In this document: positions 12,024 to 50,743 of the stretch, piece by piece
Numbering within the stretch: the stretch's first letter is position 1
Layout: every line of letters starts with the position of its first letter
Source: an uncultured Candidatus Saccharibacteria bacterium
Lineage (GTDB): Bacteria; Patescibacteriota; Saccharimonadia; Saccharimonadales; JBBQAJ01
DNA: 52,497 nt
Direction of reading: 5' to 3'
NCBI GenBank assembly: GCA_964597925.1
Contig: CAZQZT010000004.1
Span: forward strand, 1-52,497
Program-made: the position numbers and the translations under genes
The notes under the pieces: generated by a model
Database searches by the model: none
Told to the model about the DNA's origin: nothing
The model's input: only the letters and a program-made list of their open reading frames with translations

Positions 12024-12443
12024 TTATACTGGTGCAAAATCTATAAGATTTTGTCGATACTTCTCTATATGAGGCTCGATAGGTAACTTCTTTAGGTCTT
12101 CTTTGGTGAAATAGCCAATAGTAATATCTTGCTCTGGTGACTTAACAGCTTTGGTTGCCGTATCTACCGGATATACCAAAAAGATTAATGGACGTTCGGC
12201 TGGATGGTCATAAGTTGCCCATGCCTGCAAATGGTCTTTATCAATCTTCGTAACATCTACGCCTATTTCTTCTTGTAACTCGCGCCGTAAAGCGTCCTCT
12301 GGCTCCTCAAGATGTTCAACACCACCGCCCGGTAAATCCCAGTAAATGCTGTCTTCCTTAACTAACAGCAAGCCCTTGTTGGAGCCTTGAACAGCTGCTT
12401 TTGCCGATACTCTATAGGTGCAGGGTTTATATGTCGTTGCCAT
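12024..12443 (-). CDS. NUDIX hydrolase
   Basis: WDLPGGGVEHLEEPEDALRRELQEEIG Nudix box. Confidence 0.9.
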   Translation of the reverse strand: MATTYKPCTYRVSAKAAVQGSNKGLLLVKEDSIYWDLPGGGVEHLEEPEDALRRELQEEIGVDVTKIDKDHLQAWATYDHPAERPLIFLVYPVDTATKAVKSPEQDITIGYFTKEDLKKLPIEPHIEKYRQNLIDFAPV

Positions 12444-23673: not shown

Positions 23674-23838
23674 ATCTCTCCAGCTTAAAGCGTATTAATT
23701 TAAAAATGACGCCTCAGATGCATTACTACAAATGTAATAATGAAAATGGGACGTCAACTAAATCTTCTAAAGTACGATATGAATTATAGAAAAAAAGAGT
23801 TATAATGTCAATAATATAATATAGTCACAAAATTGCAA

Positions 23839-24231
23839 ATGAGTAAAATTGCCGTTATAGAAGACGATAATCTGATCCGCGAAATGTACAAGTTGAAACT
23901 TGAACGTTCTGGGTATGAGGTTTGTCTTGCTGAAAATGGAGAAATAGGCTGGCAGATTGTTTCTGATGAGCGTCCGGACTTGATACTACTTGATTTGATG
24001 CTGCCCGAGATGAACGGTGACGTATTATTACAAAAATTGCGTGAAACAAAATGGGGAGCCGACATCCGTGTTGTAGTCTTAACTAATATCAGCAAAGATG
24101 AAGCACCAAGTTCATTGAGACTACTGAATGTTGAACGATATATCGTTAAAGCTCACCACACCCCTTCTCAGGTACTTGAAATAGTGAATGAAATATTAGG
24201 CAAAAAAGCAAGCCCTACCAGTCATAAATGA
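23839..24231 (+). CDS. Single-domain response regulator (receiver only)
   Basis: IEDD, LLDLMLP, LTN, IVKA. Confidence 0.92.
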   Translation: MSKIAVIEDDNLIREMYKLKLERSGYEVCLAENGEIGWQIVSDERPDLILLDLMLPEMNGDVLLQKLRETKWGADIRVVVLTNISKDEAPSSLRLLNVERYIVKAHHTPSQVLEIVNEILGKKASPTSHK

Positions 24232-24426
24232 TAATTTGATACGATACCACTTTCAAGCAATGCTACTTGTGCCGAATCCTGCAAAAAACCCGTTAGGCTT
24301 CGGCTATATTTTATAATATCTGAATCGATTATCTTTACTCGTTCATTTATTAACCCAATTATGATGTTTACCACCATAATCAGTTGCTGTGTATGCTATT
24401 TGAAGTTGTTAGCATAGAATGTACCT

Positions 24427-24807
24427 ATGGCTAAAATAGTATTGGTTGAAGATGATGTAATGTTGGCGGAAATATACCAAACACGACTGAAACTAGCTGG
24501 TCATGTTTGCCTAGTTGCAAATGACGGTATGACTGGTTTGTCGCTGATAGAGCATGAACTGCCAGAACTCGCCCTGCTAGATCTGATGCTTCCAAACATG
24601 TCTGGTGATAATATCTTGAGACATATGCGCGAAACTGAATGGGGTAAAAATATGAAAGCTATATTTCTTACCAACATCAGCGAATCAGAGGCGCCGGAAA
24701 ACCTGAAGGAACTCAACTTTGAACGCTACATCGTAAAAGCTAACCCTTCAAACAGCGAATTAGAGGATATTATTGCCGAAACGCTAGCGCAAGCGCCCCA
24801 AACGTAA
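24427..24807 (+). CDS. Single-domain response regulator (receiver only)
   Basis: VEDD, LLDLMLP, LTN, IVKA. Confidence 0.92.
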   Translation: MAKIVLVEDDVMLAEIYQTRLKLAGHVCLVANDGMTGLSLIEHELPELALLDLMLPNMSGDNILRHMRETEWGKNMKAIFLTNISESEAPENLKELNFERYIVKANPSNSELEDIIAETLAQAPQT

Positions 24808-24833
24808 TAGGATTAGACTAGAAAGTAACCAAT

Positions 24834-25202
24834 ATGATTAAAGTAGCAATAATCGAAGACGACCAAGCAATATCACAAATGTACCGCATTAAATTCGAGG
24901 CGGATGGGTACGATGTAGAAACAGCCGAGAATGGCAGACTTGGACTTGAGCTTATCGAGAAAATGCGCCCGGTCATAATATTACTAGACCTGATGATGCC
25001 AGAAATGACCGGTCATGAAATGCTTCAAAAAATGCGTAAAACAGATTGGGGCAAAGACATACTAGTTATCATCCTTACCAATATGGGTGAACAGGAAGCA
25101 CCCTCTATGCTCAAAGAGCTGGGCGTAAAACGCTTTATTTTAAAAGCTGAGATGACCCCTCGCCAGGTTGTCGAAATGGTCAAGTCTGAGTTGGCTTCCT
25201 AA
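24834..25202 (+). CDS. Single-domain response regulator (receiver only)
   Basis: IEDD, LLDLMMP, LTN, ILKA. Confidence 0.92.
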   Translation: MIKVAIIEDDQAISQMYRIKFEADGYDVETAENGRLGLELIEKMRPVIILLDLMMPEMTGHEMLQKMRKTDWGKDILVIILTNMGEQEAPSMLKELGVKRFILKAEMTPRQVVEMVKSELAS

Positions 25203-29388: not shown

Positions 29389-29463
29389 AAGCATAAGCCT
29401 ATTGGAGGGCCCCTCCTTTGCAATAGCTTCGGTGGGCAGGCATCGTAGACGTTATCGCAACTA
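29389..29463. repeat. tRNA-Lys 3'-end junction J2 (30 bp extra between core and arm)
   Basis: AAGCATAAGCCTAT-TGGAGGGCC-N30-ATCGTAGACGTTATCGCAACTA. Confidence 0.8.
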
Positions 29464-29546
29464 TATTTCAATACCCAATACCTGGTCAACAAAAAATTTT
29501 GTGCGTGTTGACTGTTTAATTTTTATTCATGATATTACAAAGACCC

Positions 29547-29583
29547 TTGACATATCTGTATACATAGCATACAATGTATACAT
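29547..29583 (+). promoter_or_regulatory. Promoter/operator of the TA pair
   Basis: TTGACA-N17-TACAAT, ATG 6 nt later; two TGTATACA palindromes overlap it. Confidence 0.8.
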
Positions 29584-29830
29584 GAGTAGAATTCAGTATA
29601 CAATTAGAAATATTCCTGCACCCGTAGATAAAGTTATTAAAAAACGAGCAAAACAGTCTGGTAAGTCATTCAATCAGACAGTTGTGGACATTTTGGCAAT
29701 GCAAACTTTTGGCTCGACAGATTTACATATAGAAGAGAGCTTTGATTGGTTATATAACAATAATACTCTCGATGACTCTTTTGATGAGGCAATAAAAGAT
29801 ATATCAAAAATAGATAAGAAGATTTGGTGA
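29582..29830 (+). CDS. Ribbon-helix-helix antitoxin (FitA/VapB-like)
   Basis: QYTIRNIP..VD..IKKRAK..GKSFNQ.VVDIL; directly upstream of a PIN gene. Confidence 0.8.
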   Translation: MSRIQYTIRNIPAPVDKVIKKRAKQSGKSFNQTVVDILAMQTFGSTDLHIEESFDWLYNNNTLDDSFDEAIKDISKIDKKIW

Positions 29831-29834
29831 TAAT

Positions 29835-30224
29835 ATGTCCTTTATTTTGGATACCAGCGCTTACTCGGCCTTCAATCGAGGTGATAAACGTTTAAGGGCG
29901 TGGTTTACACCTGACAGAGACATTATCGTACCAATCATAGTGTTAGGTGAATTACGTTCGGGCTTTGCTGTCGGTAATAGATTTGAGGAAAACGAGAAGC
30001 TTCTACAGAGATTTCTTGATAGCCCAAATGTCACGGTACAGACCATAACGGATAAAACTACAGTAATATATTCACAGATTTATCTTAAACTTCGCGCTAT
30101 AGGCAGGCCAATTGGTACAAATGATATGTGGATAGCAGCGATAGCTCTTGAATTAGATAACGAACTCCTGACTTTGGATGAAGATTTTGCGAATGTACCA
30201 GATTTAATGATAGGTAAAATATAG
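29835..30224 (+). CDS. vapC: VapC family PIN-domain toxin
   Basis: ILDTSAY, LGEL, NDMWIAAIA, LLTLDEDF. Confidence 0.9.
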   Translation: MSFILDTSAYSAFNRGDKRLRAWFTPDRDIIVPIIVLGELRSGFAVGNRFEENEKLLQRFLDSPNVTVQTITDKTTVIYSQIYLKLRAIGRPIGTNDMWIAAIALELDNELLTLDEDFANVPDLMIGKI

Positions 30225-34323: not shown

Positions 34324-34830
34324 ATGAGCAAAATATCAGTGAATGAAGCATATCAAAAGGGCTACATCTATACACTCAGTGAACCTTCTGGTAAAAACTT
34401 CGAATCTGATTTCAAGCCACAGCTCACACCAGAACAAATGTTAAAGCTTGGGATTTTTGGCGGATTTTATTTTACCTGCATCCCGGCTGAATTCCCAGCT
34501 AGCTGGTTTGATGGGGTAGAATTTACCAAAACAGGGCACGCCGATGCTAGTTTAAATTTTTTCAAAGTAAACGCTAGTCAGCCACTGGAAGTCTGGCAGA
34601 AAAAGGGCTGGATATATTTCGAGGACCCTAAGGGTTGGTTTTTATGGTACTGCCGGTACTACCTGGGAAGAAGAATTCCTGAAGAAGATGCTCGCCAGAT
34701 AAAACGCTGGAGAGCTATAACAAGGCACATCAGCCAGATACAAAAGGTGTGTCAGCCAGGTGATTTATCTTGCAGACCTCGGCAACGCCAAGCATTACTA
34801 CACTGGGCATACGATTCACGCAAGCTATAA
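34324..34830 (+). CDS. Conserved hypothetical protein
   Basis: Trp/Arg-rich 168-aa ORF (LTP.QML.LG.FGG...DP.GWF.WYCRYY.GRR...RQI.RW...RQ.LLHWAYD); own -10 box. Confidence 0.75.
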   Translation: MSKISVNEAYQKGYIYTLSEPSGKNFESDFKPQLTPEQMLKLGIFGGFYFTCIPAEFPASWFDGVEFTKTGHADASLNFFKVNASQPLEVWQKKGWIYFEDPKGWFLWYCRYYLGRRIPEEDARQIKRWRAITRHISQIQKVCQPGDLSCRPRQRQALLHWAYDSRKL

Positions 34831-35676
34831 ATATGCCTGTATCAGAACCATAGTAATACAAAAACCGGCAAACCAATTGAGCCAAATAAAACGTCTCCAC
34901 CCCGCATTGGCAGATTCGGCTGTTTTGTCAGTTATGGCTCTGAATGGATAAATATTTACGACATATGCCAGGCATATAAACGCACACACTAGCCCTGCCC
35001 CTCCACGAGTTGCCAACAACAGCGCACTAGCCGTGTACAGCCCTCCCGCCAGCCGTGTGGTTATTCGAGCGCCTAACACGGTTCCAATCGAACTAATCTT
35101 GCCCGCTCTATCTGCGGGGATGTCTTGTACCGCACCAAAAGCATGGCTAGCCATACCCCATAAAAAGAAAGCAAAAACATATGGCAAAAAGCTTGTTTGC
35201 CAGCCCGCCAGCACTAGTCCGTACACCAGTGGTCCAACGAAATGACTGCTTGAAGTTATAGAGTCAATGAATGGTCGCTCTTTGAAGCGTAACTTTGGAA
35301 GACTGTATGCCAATACCATGAACACAACTGCACCAAGCGTAAGCTTTGCAGACAAACCACCCCACGTAAACATAACAGCGAGAACTGGGATGTTAGTGAT
35401 AAATACCCCTCGTAATATGGTCTTGTGTTGAGCTTTTGCGAGCACAGCCCCTTCTATGCCACCTTTACGTGGATTCAGTATGTCCGATTCATAATCAAAT
35501 ACATCGTTTACGCCATACATCATCAGGTTGTACGGAATTAGGAAATATATAGTGCCCACCAAAAACTGCCACGAAGCCTGGTGTGAGACTAAAATATAGC
35601 CGGCCCCAAACGGATAAGCAGTATTCAGCCATGAAATTGGCCTAGACGATAACAAAATATAACGCAAGTTTTTCAT
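34825..35676 (-). CDS. crtEb: UbiA-family lycopene elongase (C50 carotenoid)
   Basis: SSRPISWLNTAYPF, NDVFDYESD..NPRKGG.EG, AFGAVQDI..DR; last gene of the crt operon. Confidence 0.85.
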   Translation of the reverse strand: MKNLRYILLSSRPISWLNTAYPFGAGYILVSHQASWQFLVGTIYFLIPYNLMMYGVNDVFDYESDILNPRKGGIEGAVLAKAQHKTILRGVFITNIPVLAVMFTWGGLSAKLTLGAVVFMVLAYSLPKLRFKERPFIDSITSSSHFVGPLVYGLVLAGWQTSFLPYVFAFFLWGMASHAFGAVQDIPADRAGKISSIGTVLGARITTRLAGGLYTASALLLATRGGAGLVCAFICLAYVVNIYPFRAITDKTAESANAGWRRFIWLNWFAGFCITMVLIQAYL

Positions 35677-35960
35677 GGCGATTTATTGCGCTCCCAAAGC
35701 ACGGGTACTATCAAGCCAGCTACGACCGTATAAGCAAAATCTTCTAACGGCACCCTCCCTATATAGAAACCCAAAATATAACGTAAATCATAGCTAACAA
35801 GATTTAGCGCTATAATGATACTATCAAATATGGCAGTCAAAACCACTAGCACGACAATGGTTTTTATAATTGGCTTAGCAGAAAGTTCTACCCTGGACAG
35901 CTTTACCACCAACACAGTCACAACTAAAAAAATAATATTCAGCAGAGCATACCTATACAC
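35673..35960 (-). CDS. C50 carotenoid cyclase subunit (CrtYf/CrtYh-like)
   Basis: LTAIFDSII...G.VPLEDFAY; GTG start overlaps the upstream stop. Confidence 0.8.
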   Translation of the reverse strand: MYRYALLNIIFLVVTVLVVKLSRVELSAKPIIKTIVVLVVLTAIFDSIIIALNLVSYDLRYILGFYIGRVPLEDFAYTVVAGLIVPVLWERNKSP

Positions 35961-36267
35961 TTCGTTCCTCCAAAGCCCGCCATACAAGCAGGGCAGTGTA
36001 AGTAAGCAATATTAGGAAAAATAACTCCTCGAATGGAAAATCTTTCCCAACCATTAAACCTGTACTATATACTCCGCCCCCATCAGAAAAAATTCCAAGA
36101 ACGATGCCCAAAATATCCCAGAGTACAAAAACTCCAATAGCTGGAAGCAGTGTCCTGAATGTGCGTCGTCGGTCTTTAAAAAAAGCTAGTTTGTATCTAT
36201 AGTCAAATAGTCCCATGCCCAAAATCGCCAGCAAAAGTCCGGTTATATATACGAGATGTTGCCACAT
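35953..36267 (-). CDS. C50 carotenoid cyclase subunit (CrtYe/CrtYg-like)
   Basis: DYRYKLAFF...FVLWD..G...G.F...PFEELFFL. Confidence 0.8.
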   Translation of the reverse strand: MWQHLVYITGLLLAILGMGLFDYRYKLAFFKDRRRTFRTLLPAIGVFVLWDILGIVLGIFSDGGGVYSTGLMVGKDFPFEELFFLILLTYTALLVWRALEERSV

Positions 36268-37790
36268 TATCCTATTGCTCCTTTTATCGGACCTCTGGTT
36301 TTGTCACCCGTGATTTGTTTGTACACCAACTCTGCACTGATCAAACACATGGGCACGCCTATACCCGGCTGAACGTTCGCGCCTACGTAGTACAAGTTTT
36401 TGGTCTTTTTGCTTCGGGTACGAGGACGCAACATGGCGCTTTGTCGTAGTTCGTGTCCAAGACCAAGTGCCGTACCTTTCCATGAATTGTAGTCATTGTA
36501 AAAATCCGCCGGTCCATATAGTTCCTTGGTTACTATACGTTCAGCAAAGTCTATGACACCAGACTGCTCAGCTATCTGCTGGATGTACAGTTCGGCATAT
36601 TCCTCTAACTTATCGGCATGCAGATTTGGATTTGCCGGTAGCGGAACTAGTACAAATACATTTTCGTGACCTTTTGGTGCTACCGAACTATCTGTTTGGC
36701 TAGACTTACAGACGTATATAGAGGCTGGGGTTGGCCACTCTTTGGCTTCGGCTATTTTCGCAAAATTTTCTTTCCAATCCTTAACAAAGAACAAGTTGTG
36801 ATGCTTGAGCTGAGGCAATGAACCTTTAACTCCTAAATACATCAACAAAGCTGAAGGTCCAGCTTGGCGTTTTTTCCAATATGAGCTTGGATAGTCTTGA
36901 GCATGTGTGGGTAATAATTTTGTCTGCGTAAAATGCATGTCGGCATTTGAAATAACTATGTCTGATAAAATTTGTGATCCATCATTCATACGTAAACCCG
37001 TGGCTTCTTTATCTTGAATCTCTATGGCCTTGACCGCTTTGTTCAAGTAAAATTTAACACCGAGATTTTTACCTATGCGTACCATACTCTCCGTTACCGA
37101 ATACATACCACCCTGGGGATAATAAACTCCCTGGCGAAAATCCAAATAACTCATAAGATGATAGATAGCCGGCACTTTAAATGGAGAAGATCCTAGAAAT
37201 ACAGATGGGTATTCCAAAATTTGCCTAAGGCCGGGGTCTTTAAAATGTTTGCCTGTAAGTTTGTTCATGGTTTGTTGAGCGTTTTTTAACATAGCTGGGC
37301 CATGACGCAACAAACCTGGTCTCATAAAATTACGTGGTGATTCAAATGTTGTGTACAAAAAGTTTTCTAGTGCCAGTTTATAGATTTTTTCTGCACTATC
37401 TAAGTAGTTAATAAGGGCCTCACCTGCGCCAGTTTCGCGTCTTTCAAACATTTCTGCATCTGCTTTCTCGTCCCCCGTTATCACGAGCGGATTTTTTTCG
37501 CTTTCTAAAAACACTTGGTACGCGGGCTCTAGCTTAGTCAGCTTCAGCTGGGATTTGGTAGACGAACCTAGTATTTCAAAAAAATGATCGAAGACCTCTG
37601 GCATCAAATACCACGAAGGACCAGTGTCAAAACGAAAACCGTCTTTTGCTAGCATGCCCATTCGGCCACCGAGCTGGCTCCTAGCTTCGTATACACTTAC
37701 TTCGTACCCAGCTTTTGCTAACAAATTCGCAACAGCTAGGCCACCTACTCCTGCCCCAACTATTGCAACTGTTGTTTTATTTTTTGTCAC
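36267..37790 (-). CDS. crtI: Phytoene desaturase
   Basis: GAGVGG, GFRFDTGPSWYLMP, YYPQGG, YYVGA..QPG.GVP; GTG start at 37790. Confidence 0.93.
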   Translation of the reverse strand: MTKNKTTVAIVGAGVGGLAVANLLAKAGYEVSVYEARSQLGGRMGMLAKDGFRFDTGPSWYLMPEVFDHFFEILGSSTKSQLKLTKLEPAYQVFLESEKNPLVITGDEKADAEMFERRETGAGEALINYLDSAEKIYKLALENFLYTTFESPRNFMRPGLLRHGPAMLKNAQQTMNKLTGKHFKDPGLRQILEYPSVFLGSSPFKVPAIYHLMSYLDFRQGVYYPQGGMYSVTESMVRIGKNLGVKFYLNKAVKAIEIQDKEATGLRMNDGSQILSDIVISNADMHFTQTKLLPTHAQDYPSSYWKKRQAGPSALLMYLGVKGSLPQLKHHNLFFVKDWKENFAKIAEAKEWPTPASIYVCKSSQTDSSVAPKGHENVFVLVPLPANPNLHADKLEEYAELYIQQIAEQSGVIDFAERIVTKELYGPADFYNDYNSWKGTALGLGHELRQSAMLRPRTRSKKTKNLYYVGANVQPGIGVPMCLISAELVYKQITGDKTRGPIKGAIG

Positions 37791-38622
37791 TTTTTGTTCT
37801 TCGTAATTTATTTGTAACCAGGTTCTTGCCAAGCAAATTTAATTTTATTGCGTTATTTACGCGAATTCGTTTTTTTTTGATCCCAGCAACTGACGATTTA
37901 TCTAGTTTTCCTAGTAAGCGCCAGTAGTATTCGTATGCTGAAATAACAGCCGGCCTGGCACCCGATGGCAATTTATTAATTGCTGGTAATGCATCTGTAA
38001 AATCTTTCTTAATGTCTAGCACTATGATTTCCTTGTCCTTATCATCAAAATTCTCGTAACTACAGTCCGGAAAATAAAAACGATTCAACTCTTCGAAGTC
38101 AAATACTATGTCTCGTAAAAAATTTACTTTTTGAAATGCAGACCCCAAGGCACGAGCACCTGGTTCTAGGCTTTTAAATTCTGCCATAGTATTCACAAAT
38201 ACCTTCAAACACATAAGTCCGACTACCTCAGCCGAACCATCTATGTATTTATCATACAAAACTTTATCGAATTGTTGTGATTTGGTATCTAGTTTCATGC
38301 TGTAAAAAAACGGTTCTATGAGTGTTTTATCAATACTGCGCTTATTTGCTGTCAGCTGAAATGCATGAACTATCAAATTAGAACTAAAGTTTCTTTTAAT
38401 TGCATCGTATACTTCACACTCAAGCATCTCAATCTGTGAAATGGCATCTTGGCCGGAGTAAGTGTCAACAATTTCATCAGCAATGCGCACCAAGCCATAT
38501 ATGTTATATATATCACCACGTATTTCTGGTGTAAAAAGTCTAGTAGCCAACCCGAAGGAGTTTGAATAATAATTCGTAACTAATCTAGCTGTTTTTTGAG
38601 AAACAATATTATAAGTATCCAC
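37777..38622 (-). CDS. crtB: Phytoene synthase
   Basis: YS.SF.LA, VRIADEIVD, GSAEVVGLMCL, LG.AFQKVNFLRD. Confidence 0.93.
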   Translation of the reverse strand: MDTYNIVSQKTARLVTNYYSNSFGLATRLFTPEIRGDIYNIYGLVRIADEIVDTYSGQDAISQIEMLECEVYDAIKRNFSSNLIVHAFQLTANKRSIDKTLIEPFFYSMKLDTKSQQFDKVLYDKYIDGSAEVVGLMCLKVFVNTMAEFKSLEPGARALGSAFQKVNFLRDIVFDFEELNRFYFPDCSYENFDDKDKEIIVLDIKKDFTDALPAINKLPSGARPAVISAYEYYWRLLGKLDKSSVAGIKKKRIRVNNAIKLNLLGKNLVTNKLRRTKSDKK

Positions 38623-39701
38623 TAACTATTTCTCCATGCGGATTTTGAAATGAGTGCTTTGAATTGAGCTTTTGCATTTTCGCTGACATCAAGACTATCT
38701 ACGGCTATCTCTGCCTTTTTCGCATAGTTTTGAATTAATTGTTCAAGATCTGATTTTGCACCGCAAGATTCCATAATTTTCTGTGCTTTTTTTGCCATTT
38801 CTTTGTCGCAATCAGGATTTCCCACTATAGCGTTTAACTGAACTTTTTGTTCGTGGCTAGCCAGCTGGAGGGTCCTCTGCAGCAAATACGTCTGTTTTCC
38901 TTCTCTTATATCCCCCAGGACCGTTTTACCGGTTTGCTCGGGAACACCAAATACACCTAACAAATCGTCTGCCAGCTGAAAAGCAATACCAAGTGCTGTT
39001 CCGATGACATTTAAGGTACTTGTAGTTGTGTCATCTGCATCGGCAAGCATAGCCCCCAAAAGCAACGGCGTAGTACATGAATAAAATGCCGTTTTATTTT
39101 CGGCTATTTTAAGACAGTCGCTATGTTCAGAATCATAAAGTACAGCTTCAGTATCTAGTAGTTCTCCGCCAACTACGGCAAATACAGCATCTCCAATTAG
39201 TTTTATAGCCTGCAACTGCTTATCGGCCTCTATGTCACTTCTAAGGATTTGCTGGTAGGCCTCGGATAGCATCAAATCACCTGCCAGTATTGCTGCACTA
39301 TTAGAAAAGTGATCTAAATCATACTTCGTTGAGTCGAGACGGGAGTAACGTTTCCTGTACATGCCCATAATATTATCTGTGCCATGCCGCGAATAGTCTC
39401 GGTCAATAATGTCATCGTGTATGAGCATAGCTGAATGAAGTAGCTCAAGCGCCACTCCAACCGGTACTACCTTTTTATAATCCATCCCGCCCAGTGACTC
39501 ATATGCCAAAAAAAACAAATATGGTCGCATGCGTTTGCCGCTAGCCTTATGCAAGTCATGGAGTGACTGCCACAAAAACCCATAATCAGCGTGCATGTAT
39601 GCAGACCTGGTCCGCTGCAGTTTAAAATAGTTGTGTAAAAATATATTTACATCTTTACGAACTGAGTCGCTATTGTGAATTTTTTGGTCTCTCGAGTGCA
39701 T
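38622..39701 (-). CDS. crtE: Polyprenyl (GGPP) synthase
   Basis: GKRMRP, LIHDDIID, KTA, FQLADD...GK....DI.EGK. Confidence 0.88.
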   Translation of the reverse strand: MHSRDQKIHNSDSVRKDVNIFLHNYFKLQRTRSAYMHADYGFLWQSLHDLHKASGKRMRPYLFFLAYESLGGMDYKKVVPVGVALELLHSAMLIHDDIIDRDYSRHGTDNIMGMYRKRYSRLDSTKYDLDHFSNSAAILAGDLMLSEAYQQILRSDIEADKQLQAIKLIGDAVFAVVGGELLDTEAVLYDSEHSDCLKIAENKTAFYSCTTPLLLGAMLADADDTTTSTLNVIGTALGIAFQLADDLLGVFGVPEQTGKTVLGDIREGKQTYLLQRTLQLASHEQKVQLNAIVGNPDCDKEMAKKAQKIMESCGAKSDLEQLIQNYAKKAEIAVDSLDVSENAKAQFKALISKSAWRNS

Positions 39702-39813
39702 AAAACTAATGTGGCCCTATAAATAATGAAACTAACCATAGGATTATAACCTGTAATATGCAGAAAAATCATATTTACATAAAATCATATTATTATGGCC
39801 CTAAAGTCAATTA

Positions 39814-40374
39814 TCAATTACCAGTTTTATCTCGTGAATGCTTAGAGCTTTTACTTGGTAGTGTTTTTGGTTCGTGCAGTGATAAAGTTTTTTGCAACAC
39901 TTCAAGTACGCTCTGCGCATGCTCTTTGCTCATCCCGACTCTAGAAACCGCTAAAGGCTGATTGTTTGGTCCGGCTGTTTGCATAAAATTCATAATAACA
40001 CCGTAATTGTTAACCATTACATGAACCATATCAGTATAAACAATTCTGGTATCTCCGGCCATAACTACTACGCCGTTTTGTGCATGACCATATATATTAT
40101 TTATGGTATTTTGAACTGGAAGTTCATCTTGATCAAAACCGGCAAGCTCCCAAAGTTTTGTTGCTACGTCTTCCCTCGCAGCAAAATGACTTATAAGTAA
40201 TAGTAGGATGTCTTCGCCTGGACGTTCGGCACCCTCTTCCATAGCATTCAAGTCATCCGGGTCGATTTCAACTGCGCCCGAAACTTCGGCCAATGTTTCT
40301 TGGCGCTTTTCACGTAATTTCCTTAGTTGTGTCCCAAGAGATTCAAATGGGTGCTGTTTGTTTGCCTGACTCAT
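39814..40374 (-). CDS. XRE-type HTH protein with C-terminal beta domain
   Basis: LG.QLRKLRE...TLAEVS...E.G..RP; start set at ATG 40374. Confidence 0.8.
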   Translation of the reverse strand: MSQANKQHPFESLGTQLRKLREKRQETLAEVSGAVEIDPDDLNAMEEGAERPGEDILLLLISHFAAREDVATKLWELAGFDQDELPVQNTINNIYGHAQNGVVVMAGDTRIVYTDMVHVMVNNYGVIMNFMQTAGPNNQPLAVSRVGMSKEHAQSVLEVLQKTLSLHEPKTLPSKSSKHSRDKTGN

Positions 40375-40465
40375 GCCTATTAATGGTACGCCGGTCAATT
40401 GCCACATGCAAGCATTAGAAGCTATGGACTCACAACTAATAGCTATGTACTCTAAGGGTATGTTT

Positions 40466-42811: not shown

Positions 42812-43031
42812 GCACTAAATCACAGATCTATTGTATCAGTAGCGTCATGTGATTGGAAGATGTTACCGATGCGTGTGTTTGAGTGCAGTTTGAGGGGAAG
42901 ATTAAGCACTGAAGTGGAGGCGTACTTTCGGTACGCCGTAATGATGATTGGAGGTTTTGGCCCAAAATATGCCAAACACGCGTGTTGTCCATATTGCAAT
43001 TTATACCCCAATTGATATAATATTTTGGTCT

Positions 43032-44552
43032 ATGCACACAACTAACGAAAAAATTGGACAACTTATTCACCAGATACGGCAAGAGAGAGGCCTTACTCAG
43101 GCGGCTTTTGCTCGCAAGCTTGGCACTAGCCAAAGTGCCGTCAACCGCATAGAACATGGCAATCAAAACCTAAGTCTCGAAACCCTAGGACGAATTAGCG
43201 ATGTTTTAAATAAGCCTCTTATCAGCCTTAATACTGGTGCAGTGAATTTGCGCGTTGAGGGTGGGCATGAACTAAGAGGTACTGTAGAGACAAAAACGTC
43301 AAAAAATGCTGCCGTTTGTTTACTCATGGCATCTTTATTAAACAAAGGCACGACGCGCCTAAAACATATGCCGCGCATCGAGGAAGTAAACCGTTTAGTA
43401 GAAGTGCTTTTAAGTATAGGCGTACACGTCCGCTGGCTAGCTGGTAATGATTTGGAGATTAAGCCACCTGCGGTTTTAGATTTAAGCAGAATTGACGCTG
43501 GGGCCGCTAGAAAAACCCGCAGTGTGCTAATGATGCTAGGTCCCCTAATGCACATGTTTAAAGAGTTCAAAATTCCGTACGCAGGCGGGTGTAAACTTGG
43601 AACTAGAACGGTCCAGCCTCATCTATATGCTTTAGAAGAATTGGGGGTGGATATAGTGGCGAAAACTGGCTACTACCACGTAAACGTAAAGAAAAAGCCT
43701 GCCAAACAAATTGTGCTTTATGAATCAGGTGACACTACAACTGAAAACATTTTGATGGCTGCAGCTAGGTTTGATGAAGAAATTGTAATCAAAATGGCTA
43801 GCGCTAATTATATGGTGCAGGATTTGTGCAACTTTCTTAAGAAACTGGGCGTAAAAATTGAAGGCATTGGTACGAGTACACTAACCGTTCGAGGTAAAAA
43901 TGAAATCAAGAAAAATGTAACTTATTATCCTAGCGAAGACCCCATAGAAGCAATGACATTTATCGCCGCGGCGATTACGACAAATTCCAAAATCACTGTA
44001 GCCCGTGCGCCAATAGAATTTCTTGAGCTAGAACTACTTAAGCTCAAGAAAATGAATATGAAATTCGATATAACGCCGTATTACAAAGCAGAAAATGGCT
44101 TTACTAACTTGGCGGATATCACTGTTCATAAACACGACGGGAAACTAGTGGCGTTAGAAGAAAAAATTTACGCTAGACCATTCCCAGGACTGAACATAGA
44201 TAATCTGCCTTATTTTGTGCCGATTTGTGCAGTTGCCAAAGGCCGAACACTTATTCACGACTGGGTATATGAAGAGCGCGCCCTTTACTACACAGAGTTG
44301 CGGAAACTGAATGCCAACGTGACATTGGCAGACCCACATCGCGCATATATAGATGGTCCTACTAAATTCAGTGCCGGTGATGTAGTATGCCCGCCCGCAC
44401 TTCGACCGGCGGTATTGTTACTCATAGGCATGCTGGCTGCTCCCGGCATATCAATCCTCAGAAACGTTTACTCTATAAATAGAGGTTATGAAGATTTGGC
44501 TGAACGGCTCAATAGTCTTGGTGCTCAAATCACCATCATGCACGAGCTCTAG
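43032..44552 (+). CDS. murA: XRE-HTH fused UDP-GlcNAc 1-carboxyvinyltransferase
   Basis: N-terminal IRQERGLTQ..FA..LG.SQSAV.RIE.G; MurA motifs SKNA, AGGCKLG.R, TTTENI, RGYE.L..RL..LGA. Confidence 0.9.
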   Translation: MHTTNEKIGQLIHQIRQERGLTQAAFARKLGTSQSAVNRIEHGNQNLSLETLGRISDVLNKPLISLNTGAVNLRVEGGHELRGTVETKTSKNAAVCLLMASLLNKGTTRLKHMPRIEEVNRLVEVLLSIGVHVRWLAGNDLEIKPPAVLDLSRIDAGAARKTRSVLMMLGPLMHMFKEFKIPYAGGCKLGTRTVQPHLYALEELGVDIVAKTGYYHVNVKKKPAKQIVLYESGDTTTENILMAAARFDEEIVIKMASANYMVQDLCNFLKKLGVKIEGIGTSTLTVRGKNEIKKNVTYYPSEDPIEAMTFIAAAITTNSKITVARAPIEFLELELLKLKKMNMKFDITPYYKAENGFTNLADITVHKHDGKLVALEEKIYARPFPGLNIDNLPYFVPICAVAKGRTLIHDWVYEERALYYTELRKLNANVTLADPHRAYIDGPTKFSAGDVVCPPALRPAVLLLIGMLAAPGISILRNVYSINRGYEDLAERLNSLGAQITIMHEL

Positions 44553-44613: not shown

Positions 44614-44736
44614 CTAGCGACCTAGGGTGTCTAATATATTGGATTGAAATCCAGTACGTAACCACACAATAAAGCCGAGTGCTACTAGGATAAGCGTAAC
44701 CAATATGACTGTTCGGTGCCATTCTTTTAGATTCAT
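44614..44736 (-). CDS. 40-aa single-TM small protein coupled to sortase
   Basis: MNLKEWHRTVILVTLILVALGFIVWLRTGFQSNILDTLGR*; ATGA overlap with the sortase stop; absent from the ORF track. Confidence 0.5.
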   Translation of the reverse strand: MNLKEWHRTVILVTLILVALGFIVWLRTGFQSNILDTLGR

Positions 44737-45317
44737 AATACATTCTCCAATACAGCCTGAATCACCAGGCGGTCTTTAGCTGTTAATAATGGCGTGCAGG
44801 TATACAAAGTTAATATTGATTCGTTGGTTGGGGCTTCCACGGAAGCTTTATTGGGCGAAACTTGGCTTATATTAAAAACCTTGTATTCGTAGGCTTTGCC
44901 ATGCCAGTAAACTATTATTTGATCGCCTGATTTTACTTTGTCCAAGTTATAGAAAACAGCAGCCCCAGCATAGGTGAACCTATGACCAACCAAAACGGTG
45001 TTACTGCCTTGGTCCGGTGAGCTTGTTTGTGGCCTGCGCCATATGCCCTTGTTGGCTGTATATATACTAGCTCCCTCAAATATAGGTTCCGAAAGATTCA
45101 GTGACGGTATGTATAATATTTCTCCATCTGGAATTTTGACAGTCGCAAGCGGTACGCTAGTTACGGTCGGACTAGAAATAACTGGTGCGCTGTGTCGCAC
45201 CCACCACTGTATGCTAGGGAATATCGGCAGCACCATTATGTACAAAGCCAGCAAGATTAATAGTCCTGCTAGGCAGTAGTTTACGCGTCTTAGTGTGAAT
45301 AATTTATGCATAACCAT
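44733..45317 (-). CDS. Sortase
   Basis: N-terminal TM; LVGHR, LTLYTCTP, RLVIQA (His/Cys/Arg triad); start approximate. Confidence 0.92.
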   Translation of the reverse strand: MVMHKLFTLRRVNYCLAGLLILLALYIMVLPIFPSIQWWVRHSAPVISSPTVTSVPLATVKIPDGEILYIPSLNLSEPIFEGASIYTANKGIWRRPQTSSPDQGSNTVLVGHRFTYAGAAVFYNLDKVKSGDQIIVYWHGKAYEYKVFNISQVSPNKASVEAPTNESILTLYTCTPLLTAKDRLVIQAVLENVL

Positions 45318-45339
45318 ATATATTGTATACACCTTTTCC

Positions 45340-45509
45340 AAGAACCTGATCTAATCCCCCCGTTGATAAGTAAAACCGAAGCAGCAACCATGATTTTTTC
45401 TGTCTTTTCTTATGCCAAAATATAACCGTAGGTACATTTTGAATTAAAAAAGATAGAAAAAGTGGTTGACCTTCTGTTTTAGCCGATGGGGGGATTAGGT
45501 CAGGCTCTT
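45340..45509. other. 170-bp imperfect fold-back (rod-like hairpin) element
   Basis: 22-bp terminal arms AAGAACCTGATCTAATCCCCCC / GGGGGGATTAGGTCAGGCTCTT plus three further nested complementary blocks. Confidence 0.7.
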
Positions 45510-45724: not shown

Positions 45725-48700
45725 ATGAACAGAATTCGCAAAAGTTCAAGCAGACTGAAGAACTTTCTTCTTATATTAGTAATTGTCACAGGCCAAGTTG
45801 CCACTGCAACGGGGCCATTTTTATCTCTACAGAAAGCCAGCGCTGCCCCAATTTGCGTTAACGATTCTGCTGGTGCAAATGACGAACCTGGGCAAAAAGA
45901 CCTAACAAAATTATGTGTTGATTACGCCGGTGCACCTACTAATGTGTCTACCACTTGGAACTGGGACGAACTTGGTACTTCAGGCTCAAACACACTTGAT
46001 GCTTGTAATTTATTTGATACAGATGGCGACGGTAACATAAATAATGCAGTCTGTGTAACAACTACTGGCAATCCAGCCACATTACAATCCGTAACAACTT
46101 ATTCGTGTGGTGACACCAAAATTGACCGATGTACTAGCACTGCGACAATAATTTCAAGTACAGGAACTTCTTGTACTGTAACTCAACAACCCACCGATCC
46201 ATTCCCAACTGGTGATAGTTTTAATGAAGATACTCAGGGTGCCTGCAACATACTTTTATCTACAGTAGGAGGATCATCTGCCAAACTCATTGATGTTTGT
46301 TCATATCCATCGGCTCAACCCAACTCAGACCCATCTGATTGTGTTATAGCTAGAAATGACTTTGGTAAAGTTGAACTTAAAAAAGACCTAGTCCCAAATA
46401 GCGACACTGGCAAATTTAACCTGACCGTAAATGGCCCAGAAGCAAGTGATACAACTACAGTAAATAACGTTGGGGACAGCGGGACAACGGGTGAATTAGT
46501 AGTCAAAAAAGGAAGTGTAGTTGTTAGTGAAACAGCTGGAACTTCAACATCACTGGCAAACTACAATACGACTATTGAGTGTAGAGATTTAAATGGTACT
46601 GGTACGCCACCACTTACCACAACTAGCGTAAACCTTACCGACGCAACAACTAGACAGGCTACCTTTACGTTAGTTGAAGATGCTGATGTGATTTGTGTAA
46701 TTACTAACACACGTCAACAAGCATCTCTAATTTTGCAAAAGACTGTAATGAATGATAATGGTGGAACGTTAACACAATCTAGTTTCCCAGTTGCAATAGG
46801 TGGGGCTACCGCTCAATGGGGTTCTAATACCGTTAGCCCCGGTACATATACTGTCAGCGAAACCCAACAATCAGGATATCAGGCCTCCGTATGGAGTGGA
46901 GATTGTGATGCTAACGGAAACGTTACATTGACCGATAACCAAACAAAGACTTGCTCAATTACAAACAACGATCAGCCTGGACAAATACGCGTTATAAAAA
47001 GCGTTACTAATGACAATGGTGGTAACGCAGTAGCGAGCGATTTCCAACTAAATATTAACGGAGTTGCTAAAAACCAAAACCAGTATTACAGCTCCAATGC
47101 CGGTACATATACCGTAAGTGAAAATGCTGTTACAGGTTACGCGCAGACTAGTATTGCTTGTAGAAATGACGCTAACCAACAAGTCGTTGCTCACCCCGTC
47201 ACACTTGCCCTAGCTCAATCCGTCACATGTACTGTCACTAATGACGACAACGCTCCGCAGCTAAAAGTGGTCAAAAACGTTACAAATGATAACGGCGGCA
47301 CTGCCCTTCCTGCCAGTTTCCAACTAACTGTAAATGGTAACAATGTTAGCCAGAACACTTCACTCGCAGGGATAAACTCAAACACAAGTTATGCCGTAAG
47401 TGAAGTTGCTAAAACTGGTTATGCTGGCACTGCCGTAACTTGCGTAGATGACACCACACAAGTAATTGTTTCAAACTCTCAATCATCAAGTGGCAACGTA
47501 AGTCTAAACGAAGGACAACAAGTAACTTGTACTGTATATAACGATGATATTGCTCCCAAACTGACTGTTATTAAAACTGTTATTAATAATGAAGGTGGCA
47601 CGCTTACTGTCAGTAGCTTCCCGCTTTATGTTGGTACAGTTCAAGTAGTAAGCGGTGTGCAGAATAACTTTAATGCGGGTATGTATGTAGTAAGCGAAAC
47701 CAACCAGCCTGGGTATACCGCAGGTAGCTGGGGAACTGACTGTGATCTTGGCGGGAACATAACACTAGCTATTGGTGGTGTATACACATGCACAATCACA
47801 AATAACGACCAACCTGCAACAATAATTGTTGATAAAGTAGTCGTTAATGACGATGGTGGAACGGCAAGTGCAAGTGATTGGACACTAAAAGTTAATCAAA
47901 CCACCGTTACTGATGAAGCGACCAATACTTTTAATGGCAATACTCTGTATACAATAAGTGAACAAAATGGACCGTCTGGTTATACTCAAACAAGTCTGAC
48001 TTGCCAAGACATAACTGATTCCCAAAATCTAGTAAATGTTACACATCCTTTCACTGCTCAACTGGGTCACACTTACCGTTGTACAATTACAAATAATGAT
48101 CAGCCTGCAAATCTAACATTGGTAAAAACCGTTACAAAAGATAATGGTGGCACAGCTACGCAAAACCTTTGGACCCTAACCGCAAATGGACCCGAAACAC
48201 TAAGCGGACAAGACGCAACCGAAAGCTCAACAACTGGTGTAAGTGGTCAAGTAAATGCTGGCACATATAACCTTTCTGAATCAGGTGGGCCATCTGGCTA
48301 TACTCCAAGTGCTTGGAACTGTACTGGTACAGGATTCCAGCAAACTGTTAGTTCAGTTGCCCTGTCACTAAATGCTAACGTAACTTGTACGATCAATAAC
48401 AACGATCAGCCTGCAACATTAGTGTTAGTAAAAAACTTACCCAACGATAATGGTGGCACAGCATCACAAAATGACTTCCCTGTGTTTATTACAGGACAAG
48501 CAGCTTCTTGGGGTAATAACACTGTAAGCGCAGGCAGTTACGTAGTTAGTGAAACTACACTTCCTGGCTACACGCCTTCAGCATGGAGTGTAAATTGTGA
48601 TGCCAACGGAAATGTTTCATTACTACCTGGAGAAACCAAGACCTGCACCATTACAAATGATGACGTTGCACCTAGCCTAACCCTGAACAAGATTGTCAGT

Positions 48701-50743
48701 AACACTCATGGTGGTTCGGCCACTGAAAGTGCCTGGATATTGACGGCAACTGGCCCAACAACTCTATCTGGAGCTGGTGCCACCGGTAGTACTGACGTAG
48801 TAAGTGTTAGTGGCTTCTCTGCTGGTACATATACTCTAAGTGAAAGCACCGGCCCTGCAGGTTACTCTGCCAGCGCTTGGACTTGTACCGATAACGTAAC
48901 AGTTAATTCCAACCGTCAGATTACGCTTGCTAACGGTCAAACGACTGTCTGTAGTATTACCAACAGTGATGTAGCACCTACGCTGACAGTTACAAAAGTT
49001 GTACTAAATCCTTACGGTACGCCATTGGCCGCTTCGGCATTCCCATTATTTGTTGATAGTACGTCAGTCACTAGTGGGGCTGCAAACACACAGTTCAATG
49101 CTGGTACGCATACTATTTCTGAGACACAACAAACTGGCTATACATTAACTGGTTTAGGCGGTGACTGTACTCAGTCAGAAGGCATAATAAGCGTGCTGCT
49201 TCGTCTAGCTGGTGCTTCTACATGTACGCTTACTAACACTGCCATACAACCAAAATTAATTGTCATAAAGCACGTTGTCAACGATAACGGTGGCACAAAA
49301 ACTGCTGCTGACTTCACTATGACAGTTCGTAATAACTCACAATCTGTAAACGATTTTGCAGGTGCAGAATCCCCAGGTACAAATATCGGCCTAAATGAAG
49401 GCAGCTACACAGTCGATGAATTAGCAGATGCTGGTTATGTAAAATCATTTAGCGATGACTGTACTGGGATAATATCTATAGGTCGGACAAAGACTTGCAC
49501 CATTACAAATGATGACGTTGCACCTGTATTGACACTTAATAAAATCGTGGTTAGCACTAATGAAGATCATCAAGCATCCAATTGGACTTTGACAGCGACA
49601 CCAACTACAGGTATAGCAATAAGTGGAAATGGTAGCGTTACACAGCAAGCAGTGGCTAACATGACCTATACTCTAAGTGAGCTAAATAAATCTGATGGTA
49701 CTTTTGATGCTAGTGCCTGGACTTGTACAGATAATGTTACTGTTACAGACAGCCAAATAGTATTGAGCGAAGGCGCAAATGTAACCTGTACCATAACCAA
49801 CACTGAGCGAGCTACAGTAGTTGTTACCAAGTACAATGACTTTAATAGAGACGGCAATAAGGACGAAACCGAACCTACCTTAGAAGGTTGGGAAATGTTA
49901 CTTAACAATGGTAACGTAGGCCCTGTCCCTCGAACAACCGGTACAGATGGCACTACAACTTTCACCAATGTAGCACCGAATAGCAGTTACGGATTAAGTG
50001 AAACTCAACAACCAGAAAATGGCTGGAACTTGTCTAATATAGTCTGTGAGAACGTAGAGGGTGATATAAACAACGCTGGAGATACATACAATTTCTATAT
50101 TATTCCCGGGCAAACTGTAAAATGTTACGTCGGTAATTATCGTGAACCAGTACTTCTACTTAGCAAGACCAATAACCGCCCTGCTCCAACATCTGTTGGC
50201 GACACCGTAACTTACACACTAGTTGTTACCGTCCCTGAAGATAGTGGCGCAGTGTTTGATACATCTGTACAAGATCTACCGCCAGAAGGTTTCAACTATG
50301 TTCCTGGAACCTGGACAGCTACCTCATCTGTGCGTGGCAATATTATAGTCAACGGACCGACTACGGAACCTACTTATGGATCTCCAGGTACATGGAAACT
50401 AGGTACTTTGCTACCTGGCGAGGTTGTAACACTGTCCTATAAGACTTTGATAGCGAGTACTGCATCTGCTGGAACCTACCCAGACATAGCATTCGCATCC
50501 GGTTGCGAGTCACCAACCGAACGTGACTGTAAATTACTTGCTAACGTCCAAAATGAAGGTGATACACCGTTTGTTGCTACACAGGTAACCGTAAGAGCAC
50601 CTCAAGTGCTTGGGGCTACTACAACTGTATTGGTCAATACTGGTGCGTCAGAGATATGGCGCAATATGATGGTTGGTACTTTGCTACTTGGATTGGCACT
50701 GGCCACAATTGATCGTCGTAATAAGAAAGGATACCGACTATGA
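45725..50743 (+). CDS. Giant surface adhesin: Cys-rich N-domain, 12 CnaB/prealbumin-like repeats, SdrD-B-like domain, DUF11, sorting signal
   Basis: SD AAGGAG before ATG 45725; signal peptide; repeats K.V.NDNGGT...VSE...C...TCTITNDD; C-terminal VNTG + TM + RRNKK. Confidence 0.85.
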   Translation: MNRIRKSSSRLKNFLLILVIVTGQVATATGPFLSLQKASAAPICVNDSAGANDEPGQKDLTKLCVDYAGAPTNVSTTWNWDELGTSGSNTLDACNLFDTDGDGNINNAVCVTTTGNPATLQSVTTYSCGDTKIDRCTSTATIISSTGTSCTVTQQPTDPFPTGDSFNEDTQGACNILLSTVGGSSAKLIDVCSYPSAQPNSDPSDCVIARNDFGKVELKKDLVPNSDTGKFNLTVNGPEASDTTTVNNVGDSGTTGELVVKKGSVVVSETAGTSTSLANYNTTIECRDLNGTGTPPLTTTSVNLTDATTRQATFTLVEDADVICVITNTRQQASLILQKTVMNDNGGTLTQSSFPVAIGGATAQWGSNTVSPGTYTVSETQQSGYQASVWSGDCDANGNVTLTDNQTKTCSITNNDQPGQIRVIKSVTNDNGGNAVASDFQLNINGVAKNQNQYYSSNAGTYTVSENAVTGYAQTSIACRNDANQQVVAHPVTLALAQSVTCTVTNDDNAPQLKVVKNVTNDNGGTALPASFQLTVNGNNVSQNTSLAGINSNTSYAVSEVAKTGYAGTAVTCVDDTTQVIVSNSQSSSGNVSLNEGQQVTCTVYNDDIAPKLTVIKTVINNEGGTLTVSSFPLYVGTVQVVSGVQNNFNAGMYVVSETNQPGYTAGSWGTDCDLGGNITLAIGGVYTCTITNNDQPATIIVDKVVVNDDGGTASASDWTLKVNQTTVTDEATNTFNGNTLYTISEQNGPSGYTQTSLTCQDITDSQNLVNVTHPFTAQLGHTYRCTITNNDQPANLTLVKTVTKDNGGTATQNLWTLTANGPETLSGQDATESSTTGVSGQVNAGTYNLSESGGPSGYTPSAWNCTGTGFQQTVSSVALSLNANVTCTINNNDQPATLVLVKNLPNDNGGTASQNDFPVFITGQAASWGNNTVSAGSYVVSETTLPGYTPSAWSVNCDANGNVSLLPGETKTCTITNDDVAPSLTLNKIVSNTHGGSATESAWILTATGPTTLSGAGATGSTDVVSVSGFSAGTYTLSESTGPAGYSASAWTCTDNVTVNSNRQITLANGQTTVCSITNSDVAPTLTVTKVVLNPYGTPLAASAFPLFVDSTSVTSGAANTQFNAGTHTISETQQTGYTLTGLGGDCTQSEGIISVLLRLAGASTCTLTNTAIQPKLIVIKHVVNDNGGTKTAADFTMTVRNNSQSVNDFAGAESPGTNIGLNEGSYTVDELADAGYVKSFSDDCTGIISIGRTKTCTITNDDVAPVLTLNKIVVSTNEDHQASNWTLTATPTTGIAISGNGSVTQQAVANMTYTLSELNKSDGTFDASAWTCTDNVTVTDSQIVLSEGANVTCTITNTERATVVVTKYNDFNRDGNKDETEPTLEGWEMLLNNGNVGPVPRTTGTDGTTTFTNVAPNSSYGLSETQQPENGWNLSNIVCENVEGDINNAGDTYNFYIIPGQTVKCYVGNYREPVLLLSKTNNRPAPTSVGDTVTYTLVVTVPEDSGAVFDTSVQDLPPEGFNYVPGTWTATSSVRGNIIVNGPTTEPTYGSPGTWKLGTLLPGEVVTLSYKTLIASTASAGTYPDIAFASGCESPTERDCKLLANVQNEGDTPFVATQVTVRAPQVLGATTTVLVNTGASEIWRNMMVGTLLLGLALATIDRRNKKGYRL

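Follow-up and report, generated by a model that had tools for sequence, protein, structure and literature searches.

A predicted cyclic C50 carotenoid operon in a Saccharimonadia genome, colinear with the clusters of Actinomycetota

The stretch of DNA analysed here (the window) comprises 52,497 nucleotides (nt) of contig CAZQZT010000004.1 from an uncultured Candidatus Saccharibacteria bacterium. Between 34825 and 39701 its minus strand carries six carotenoid genes in the order crtE-crtB-crtI-crtYe-crtYf-crtEb. These genes, and two features upstream of crtE, are listed below, with product lengths in amino acids (aa) and scores against family models.

38622-39701, minus strand: CrtE/IdsA-like short-chain trans-prenyl diphosphate synthase, presumed geranylgeranyl diphosphate (GGPP) synthase; 359 aa; PF00348, 170 bits
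37777-38622, minus strand: phytoene synthase CrtB; 281 aa; PF00494 SQS_PSY, 104.5 bits
36267-37832, minus strand: phytoene desaturase CrtI; 521 aa; TIGR02734 crtI_fam, 530.9 bits against a cut-off of 238.1
35953-36267, minus strand: C50 carotenoid cyclase subunit 1, CrtYe-like; 104 aa; TIGR03462, 45.0 bits against 39.4
35673-35960, minus strand: cyclase subunit 2, CrtYf-like; 95 aa from GTG 35960 (mechanical open reading frame 35673-35987, 104 aa, TTG start)
34825-35676, minus strand: UbiA-family lycopene elongase, CrtEb-like; 283 aa; NF009608, 404.5 bits against 217; PF01040 UbiA
39814-40407, minus strand: HTH_31/DUF3467 protein (Pfam), same-strand upstream neighbour of crtE
39789-39817, minus strand: promoter-like site TTGATA-17-AATAAT upstream of crtE; 10/12 matches

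A length of 95 aa is probable for the second cyclase subunit, because GTG 35960 is preceded by GGAGGA, and the same start was picked by the gene caller; its scores are 43.2 bits on TIGR03462 (cut-off 39.4) and 34.8 bits on PF18916. CrtI, which reaches 537 bits on NF058655, under the cut-off of 640, may begin at GTG 37790 rather than at TTG 37832. It can be observed that every junction in the series is overlapping. One nucleotide is shared by crtE and crtB (TAG/GTG) and one by crtI and crtYe (TAATG), while crtB and crtI overlap by 56 nt, or by 14 nt with the alternative CrtI start, crtYe and crtYf by 8 nt if CrtYf begins at GTG 35960 (GTG..TAG), and crtYf and crtEb by 4 nt (ATGA). Such overlapping start and stop codons are predicted to couple translation of the six genes, which are probably transcribed from upstream of crtE. 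A scan of the region for promoters and terminators returned nothing above shuffled expectation (14 promoter-like sites against 15.4 expected), and the site at 39789-39817, located in the 112-bp gap 5' of crtE, is a weak lead only. The HTH_31/DUF3467 protein, kept upstream of the prenyl synthase in five related loci (L001, L002, L236, L237 and L238), may be a regulator; it is also found in relatives that lack the crt genes.

The catalytic motifs are present in each product: the first and second Asp-rich motifs of CrtE, DDIID(96) and DDLLG(245), the CrtB motifs DEIVD(49) and DIVFD(171), the flavin-binding motif GAGVGG(26) of CrtI, both Asp-rich motifs of CrtEb, NDVFDYESD(57) and DIPAD(185), and the cyclase PxE(E/D) motifs PFEE(78) in CrtYe and PLED(71) in CrtYf. 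The two cyclase-domain subunits, each of about 100 aa, adjoin one another and the elongase. Conservation was measured at positions at least 97% invariant in 47-69 actinobacterial CrtEb, CrtI, CrtB and CrtE sequences, and the window retains 99% of them in CrtEb (78/79), 91% in CrtI, 96% in CrtB and 88% in CrtE, far above the expectation for chance reading frames. The claim of six overlapping genes with intact motifs, made in an earlier sequence-only reading of this DNA, is thereby borne out by the reading frames, family scores, junctions and retained residues.

Relatives were sought with a CrtEb-homologue profile scanned against one genome per GTDB species; each scan listed at most 600 candidate matches and kept 80 loci, a sample from which prevalence in the class is not derivable. 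The matches listed are mostly Micrococcales and other Actinomycetota (Microbacteriaceae, Micrococcaceae, Aeromicrobium, Janibacter, Georgenia, Cellulomonas, Demequina, Brevibacterium, Corynebacterium, Dietzia and Actinomycetaceae, with the Aurantimicrobium and Rhodoluna operons also recovered), together with at least 12 Saccharibacteria metagenome-assembled genomes (MAGs). The order crtE-B-I-Ye-Yf-Eb is identical in all cluster-spanning actinobacterial loci, about 100 of which were examined, and the colinear six-gene cluster also occurs in other Saccharibacteria species genomes, termed type 1 here. Identity between the window and actinobacterial proteins is 51-58% for CrtEb (Micrococcales), 42-50% for CrtI, 37-44% for CrtB and 30-42% for CrtE. 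The relative set contains genera known as C50 producers, namely Dietzia, Glutamicibacter, Corynebacterium, Curtobacterium, Cellulomonas and Kocuria. The decaprenoxanthin cluster of Corynebacterium glutamicum runs crtE-(cg0722)-crtB-crtI-crtYe-crtYf-crtEb and the sarcinaxanthin cluster of Micrococcus luteus crtE-B-I-E2-Yg-Yh, and the C.p.450 genes of Dietzia are named lbt. With the C. glutamicum and Micrococcales clusters the window shares the same six families in the same order, overlapping genes, and a split cyclase beside a UbiA elongase. It differs in lacking the MarR-type CrtR, the mmpL-like gene and the glycosyltransferase, in a prenyl synthase that doubles as a conserved resident gene, in sequences that group with those of other Saccharibacteria in a clade of their own, apart from every sampled actinobacterial one, and in its host, a member of the candidate phyla radiation (CPR) with no known isopentenyl diphosphate (IPP) pathway. 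The operon has a GC content of 41.6% against 42.9% for the whole window; in every Saccharibacteria locus operon GC equals host GC (0.42-0.49), whereas Actinomycetota loci lie at 0.55-0.72. The composition is thus fully ameliorated and a recent high-GC import is excluded; on this point, and on the match in gene order to the cyclic C50 clusters of Actinomycetota, the sequence-only reading stands. The genetics of C50 carotenoid synthesis in C. glutamicum are described in PMC3598387.

A gene set so typical of Actinomycetota raises the question of whether an actinobacterial fragment has been mis-binned or built into a chimera, or whether the operon is a decaying relic, all the more as two of the comparison contigs assigned to MAGs, L029 ("Chloroflexi") and L080 ("Peptococcaceae"), look mis-binned themselves. 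The flanks on the same contig are, however, Saccharimonadales housekeeping genes. All named top matches of the serine hydroxymethyltransferase GlyA in the window are Saccharimonadales or Saccharibacteria, at 76-88% identity, and the stretch glyA-murB-HTH-prenyl synthase (HTH, helix-turn-helix) is syntenic with Patescibacteria/Saccharibacteria contigs of 640 kb and 777 kb, JARXKN010000001 with the operon and ERZ27284378 k139_508325 without the crt genes; synteny of the flanks is also seen with L001, L002, L236 and L238. Several sequencing runs independently yielded this sequence, on a contig of about 65 kb; samples in which the population occurs include runs SRR8670877, SRR8670881 and SRR9952633. 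Combined with a GC content of 42% against 55-72% in Actinomycetota and with six intact frames retaining 88-99% of invariant residues, these results rule out a mis-binned contig or a decaying relic, an account that we regard as extremely improbable. The window contains three tRNAs and one riboswitch, and no rRNA genes or ribosomal-protein markers. It belongs to a Saccharimonadia genome, as the sequence-only reading had proposed in calling it CPR-type, and the possibility of a non-CPR bin, which that reading had named as a refutation, was checked through the flanking genes and set aside.

We infer enzyme activities, product, precursor source and physiological role from the genes themselves, and consider it likely that the operon is a working biosynthetic set for a cyclic C50 carotenoid. 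The chemistry of the route is established for the C. glutamicum, M. luteus and Dietzia clusters. By analogy, the prenyl diphosphate synthase would supply GGPP, two molecules of which would be condensed to phytoene by CrtB, and CrtI would convert phytoene to lycopene. CrtEb would then add one C5 unit, from dimethylallyl diphosphate (DMAPP), at each lycopene end, giving an acyclic C50 intermediate, and a membrane heterodimer of CrtYe and CrtYf would close the rings to yield a product of the decaprenoxanthin, sarcinaxanthin or C.p.450 kind (C50 chemistry in PMC3598387 and PMC7734400). The most likely predicted product is accordingly described only as a cyclic C50 carotenoid, since all actinobacterial cyclases that have been characterised fall outside the Saccharibacteria clade and the ring type (epsilon, gamma or beta) is not callable from sequence, a first point that weighs against a full assignment of the pathway. 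Four more weigh in the same direction: a carotenoid has been experimentally recorded in no Saccharibacterium; how long a chain the prenyl synthase makes is not readable, scores on the GGPP, farnesyl diphosphate and geranylfarnesyl diphosphate equivalog models being far below cut-offs; with no known source of IPP and DMAPP, ten scavenged C5 units would be needed per molecule; and the promoter-like site upstream of crtE is no better than chance. The evolutionary part of the argument carries a further caution, as neighbour-joining (NJ) distance trees could artefactually pull a fast-evolving Saccharibacteria branch outside the actinobacterial clade.

Whether the C50 product might be acyclic, of the bacterioruberin type, was also considered. 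A Lake Baikal study reports lyeJ, crtD and cruF matches in Patescibacteria, including a Saccharibacteria MAG, and attributes them to bacterioruberin synthesis (PMC9948471); haloarchaeal LyeJ is a homologue of CrtEb with about 30-34% identity, and CrtI scores 261 bits on the CrtD model. The window thus resembles the crtD-lyeJ-cruF clusters of haloarchaea and Arthrobacter in a homologous UbiA-type elongase, an adjoining CrtI-family desaturase and a C50 end product. The difference is in the remaining genes, for those clusters contain a CruF hydratase and no cyclase, and the window the reverse: two cyclase subunits lie between crtI and crtEb and overlap both, and no CruF-type hydratase family was matched among window reading frames of at least 100 aa. 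Moreover, CrtI fits the crtI family model (531 bits) better than the CrtD model (261), and the whole cluster is colinear with cyclic C50 clusters. Identity as a bacterioruberin cluster was therefore rejected, and such a product is very unlikely. A cyclic product also agrees with natural fusions of a lycopene cyclase subunit to CrtEb (PF18916 with PF01040), found in P0121 (388 aa), P0122 (429 aa) and P0080 (393 aa); the existence of such CrtYf-CrtEb fusions suggests that cyclase and elongase are functionally tied.

The history of the operon can be read in part from relatives that do not carry it. The nearest sequenced relatives of the window, whose GlyA is 86% and MurA 90-91% identical, share a backbone consisting of HTH-MurA, GlyA, MurB, the HTH_31 protein, a polyprenyl synthase, two variable genes, FolC and DHFR, with FolC and DHFR fused into one gene in L238. 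In L236, L237 and L238, crtB, crtI, both cyclase genes and crtEb are absent at this site and the prenyl synthase is kept; in the tree it nests beside the window "CrtE" inside the Saccharibacteria clade. The window crtE is therefore a resident gene. It may plausibly be the only short-chain prenyl synthase of the cell, serving undecaprenyl phosphate, and its best NCBIfam matches are actinobacterial-type polyprenyl/GGPP synthases, all below equivalog cut-offs. What appears as an accessory unit is a 3.8-kb block, crtB to crtEb, attached at the 3' end of the prenyl synthase and polymorphic among close relatives. The sequence-only reading had treated six genes as a single acquisition; six genes are indeed present, and the unit of acquisition is probably five. 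The block would have been lost, or never gained, in the closest sequenced relatives. The more distant L001 and L002 (MurB 56-57%, GlyA 52-53% identical) carry it at the same site, with crt proteins closer to those of the window (CrtEb 71-73%, CrtI 67-70%) than their MurB and GlyA are, a pattern compatible both with loss of the block in the crt-less lineages and with its exchange between members of the class. Within Saccharimonadales the distribution of the trait is patchy and not one of uniform inheritance.

Two observations concern this backbone. The resident prenyl synthase is unusually fast-evolving, the window copy (38622-39701) being 50-58% identical to L236 13002-14072 and L238 12986-14038, with GlyA at 86%, MurA at 90% and neighbouring genes at 66-74% in the same genomes. 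MurA (EPSP_synthase family) bears an N-terminal XRE-type HTH_3 domain in one reading frame (window 42948-44552, plus strand), a fusion present in all four related Saccharimonadales loci examined, including L236 8362-9954, L237 42-1562 and L238 8382-9902.

A second architecture, type 2, is found in at least 14 Saccharibacteria/Patescibacteria species genomes, for example JAXLZU010000001 (L105/L160), of 797 kb, and also L160-L172 and L174. Its layout is divergent, with crtB, crtE and crtI on one strand and the Ye, Yf and Eb genes on the other, and its CrtEb is fused to a family-2 glycosyltransferase (GT2) in a 677-aa protein (L105 5965-7998, plus strand), an elongase-glycosyltransferase fusion common to type-2 Saccharibacteria, Chloroflexota and Dormibacterota. 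The type-2 loci form their own clade in 200/200 replicates of the concatenated NJ tree. They share with the window the enzyme families, the bacterial class and presumably a cyclic C50 pathway, and differ in sequence, with identities to the window of only 39-45% (CrtEb) and 30-35% (CrtI). A CrtX-like function, fused to CrtEb, thus appears to exist in Saccharibacteria outside this window. The earlier statement that idi and crtX are missing accordingly holds within the window and does not extend, for a crtX-like glycosyltransferase, to type-2 Saccharibacteria.

Phylogenies were built by neighbour joining from Kimura-corrected distances with bootstrapping, for single proteins and for a concatenate of CrtB, CrtI and CrtEb (51 taxa, 1030 columns, 200 replicates). 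Two alternative outgroups served for rooting, one being haloarchaeal LyeJ taken from clusters annotated as crtD-lyeJ-cruF, the other Chloroflexota with Dormibacterota. Saccharibacteria form one clan with bootstrap values, of 100, of 99 for CrtEb, 100 for CrtI, 99 for CrtB and 85 for CrtE. In the concatenate the Saccharibacteria clan and the Actinomycetota clan each appear in 200/200 replicates and the two together in 143/200. Under both rootings the Saccharibacteria clan is sister to all sampled Actinomycetota and not nested inside them; the relationship therefore appears old. The depth of divergence is comparable on the two sides, CrtEb identity averaging 60% (minimum 51%) within Saccharibacteria and 65% (minimum 49%) within sampled Actinomycetota. 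It is thus probable from these trees that the crtB to crtEb block shares an ancestor with the colinear Actinomycetota operon, in a link that would be both specific and old, the split predating diversification of the sampled actinobacterial copies.

In the same trees, L029 (SEAL01000015, 47% GC) nests inside the Saccharibacteria clan and L080 (CALKAR010000234) stands beside Corynebacterium in the actinobacterial clan. L029 is probably mis-binned, and the two look like mis-binned contigs or further transfers. P0128/L159, one of the CrtEb lineages that fall between the Saccharibacteria/Actinomycetota pair and type 2, is encoded on a contig of 96 kb and 54% GC that also carries chemotaxis genes.

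The sequence-only reading had called the operon an old acquisition from a host and proposed phylogenies of CrtI and CrtEb. Run here by neighbour joining, these uphold the age and the affinity to Actinomycetota, and do not uphold derivation from a host in the form of nesting among actinobacterial copies: no such nesting was found, the actinobacterial clan excluding the Saccharibacteria copies in 200/200 bootstraps. A strict transfer from host to epibiont, with the sister position an artefact of accelerated CPR evolution, is nevertheless a possibility to be taken seriously, if not the one towards which we lean. For each gene, the nearest relatives outside the CPR are those of Actinomycetota, arranged in the same order. 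Actinomycetota group with type-1 Saccharibacteria in the 143 replicates mentioned above; they are known hosts of Saccharibacteria (PMC9296517), and CPR bacteria are generally without carotenoid synthesis, which makes a gain more parsimonious. Against it stand the monophyly of the actinobacterial clade, a divergence within Saccharibacteria as deep as that within sampled Actinomycetota, and the identity of the next outgroups after this pair, which are the unclassified contig L159 and the second Saccharibacteria type and not Actinomycetota. The donor may have been a stem or unsampled actinobacterium or a third party, or the direction may have been the reverse.

Regarding precursors, no family of the methylerythritol phosphate (MEP) or mevalonate (MVA) pathway, and no idi, crtX or rhodopsin family, was matched in window reading frames of at least 100 aa, and no isoprenoid gene was found in about 9 kb read of the 12.3 kb of source contig beyond it. 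The absence of idi noted by the sequence-only reading is confirmed, and the search for MVA/MEP genes, idi and rhodopsin that it had suggested found none in the window and those 9 kb. Two NUDIX proteins (4079-4540 and 12024-12443) were tried as type-1 isopentenyl diphosphate isomerase and rejected, neither being one. A complete rhizosphere Saccharibacteria genome has been reported without an IPP pathway, scavenging being proposed (PMC6031116), and a freshwater CPR survey lists only C10-C20 steps in Saccharimonadia (PMC9166423). The concern of the sequence-only reading over precursor supply is justified, and it applies generally. Since these published analyses and the contig show no IPP pathway, the C5 precursors are most likely scavenged. 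The pigment might serve as a membrane antioxidant, photoprotectant or rigidifier. A bolder proposal, which we consider doubtful, is that it is built wholly from host isoprenoid diphosphates and so both reads out and depends on a passage of phosphorylated metabolites out of the host and into the epibiont, its product possibly being the missing source of retinal as well.

Regarding the latter, the relevant output might be a cleavage product, with retinal for the type-1 rhodopsins and heliorhodopsins, both common in Saccharimonadia, formed from the cyclic carotenoid by an unknown oxygenase. Saccharimonadia that bear rhodopsins lack blh (PMC9296517), and 80 heliorhodopsins have been counted in the class (PMC9166423). 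Retinal is made by Aurantimicrobium, whose genes include crtEb/Ye/Yf but not blh, and C50 cleavage has been proposed for this organism (PMC7734400); its operon and that of Rhodoluna are, as stated above, among the relatives of the window. On the other hand, neither rhodopsin nor heliorhodopsin occurs in the window or the 9 kb beyond, no carotenoid oxygenase was seen, and a hydropathy screen of 31 Saccharibacteria loci revealed no rhodopsin-like frame with seven transmembrane (7TM) segments beside the operon, returning only CrtEb itself and unrelated transporters. Retinal supply is an attractive but unlikely purpose of the operon.

Several other features of the window and its neighbourhood were observed. 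A full-length c-di-GMP-II riboswitch (RF01786; 45618-45700, plus strand; 55.1 bits against a gathering score of 53.5; model positions 1-84) ends 24 nt 5' of the called start of 45725-50743, a 1672-aa SpaA-repeat sortase-type surface protein, and a sortase lies nearby at 44733-45341 (minus strand). No GGDEF or EAL genes were seen in the window. A giant adhesin or pilin putatively controlled by cyclic di-GMP in an epibiont is worth a look. Within 4 kb past the right end of the window are an IS1595-family transposase and a Replic_Relax (relaxase-like) gene (L241 11806-16408), which hints that a region close to the adhesin locus may be mobile; the 9 kb of contig read beyond the window also contains a P-type ATPase gene among others. 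Elsewhere, a histidine kinase with an N-terminal 7TM region occupies 18438-20642 (minus strand), three consecutive stand-alone response-regulator receivers of 132, 126 and 122 aa, with no output domains, lie at 23833-25202 (plus strand), and a VapBC-type toxin-antitoxin module (FitA-like ribbon-helix-helix and PIN domain) adjoins a tRNA-Lys at 29402-30224 (plus strand). An LPG_synthase_C protein (20760-21647, plus strand) represents a lipid-modifying domain in a presumed lipid scavenger, and an LPG_synthase_TM protein is located directly downstream of crtEb, in convergent orientation, in L001 (11041-11985, minus strand) and L002.

CPR bacteria are regarded as synthesising hardly any lipids themselves. 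In the literature searched, no paper was found that links CPR with crtEb, crtYe or decaprenoxanthin, and carotenoids are unmentioned in two recent genome surveys of Saccharimonadia. A built-environment study lists "crtB, crtE, crtYf" and "ubiquinone (ubiA)" as gains in a Saccharimonas MAG (PMC11484240); these genes are very probably the same operon with its elongase misnamed. The C50 carotenoid operon of Saccharibacteria is thus under-described, the pathway type itself being already known from Actinomycetota, and existing annotations misread its genes either as ubiA of ubiquinone synthesis or as lyeJ and crtD of bacterioruberin synthesis. What emerges is a pathway for a pigment of ten isoprene units, kept under purifying selection in at least two architectures and in some 25-30 species-level genomes among the matches listed, and retained in a class with no recognised source of isoprene units. 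Biotechnology makes use of actinobacterial C50 enzymes, and these sequences supply a deeply branching sister group to them. Furthermore, a coloured, Raman-active product would make the question of what CPR cells take from their hosts testable.

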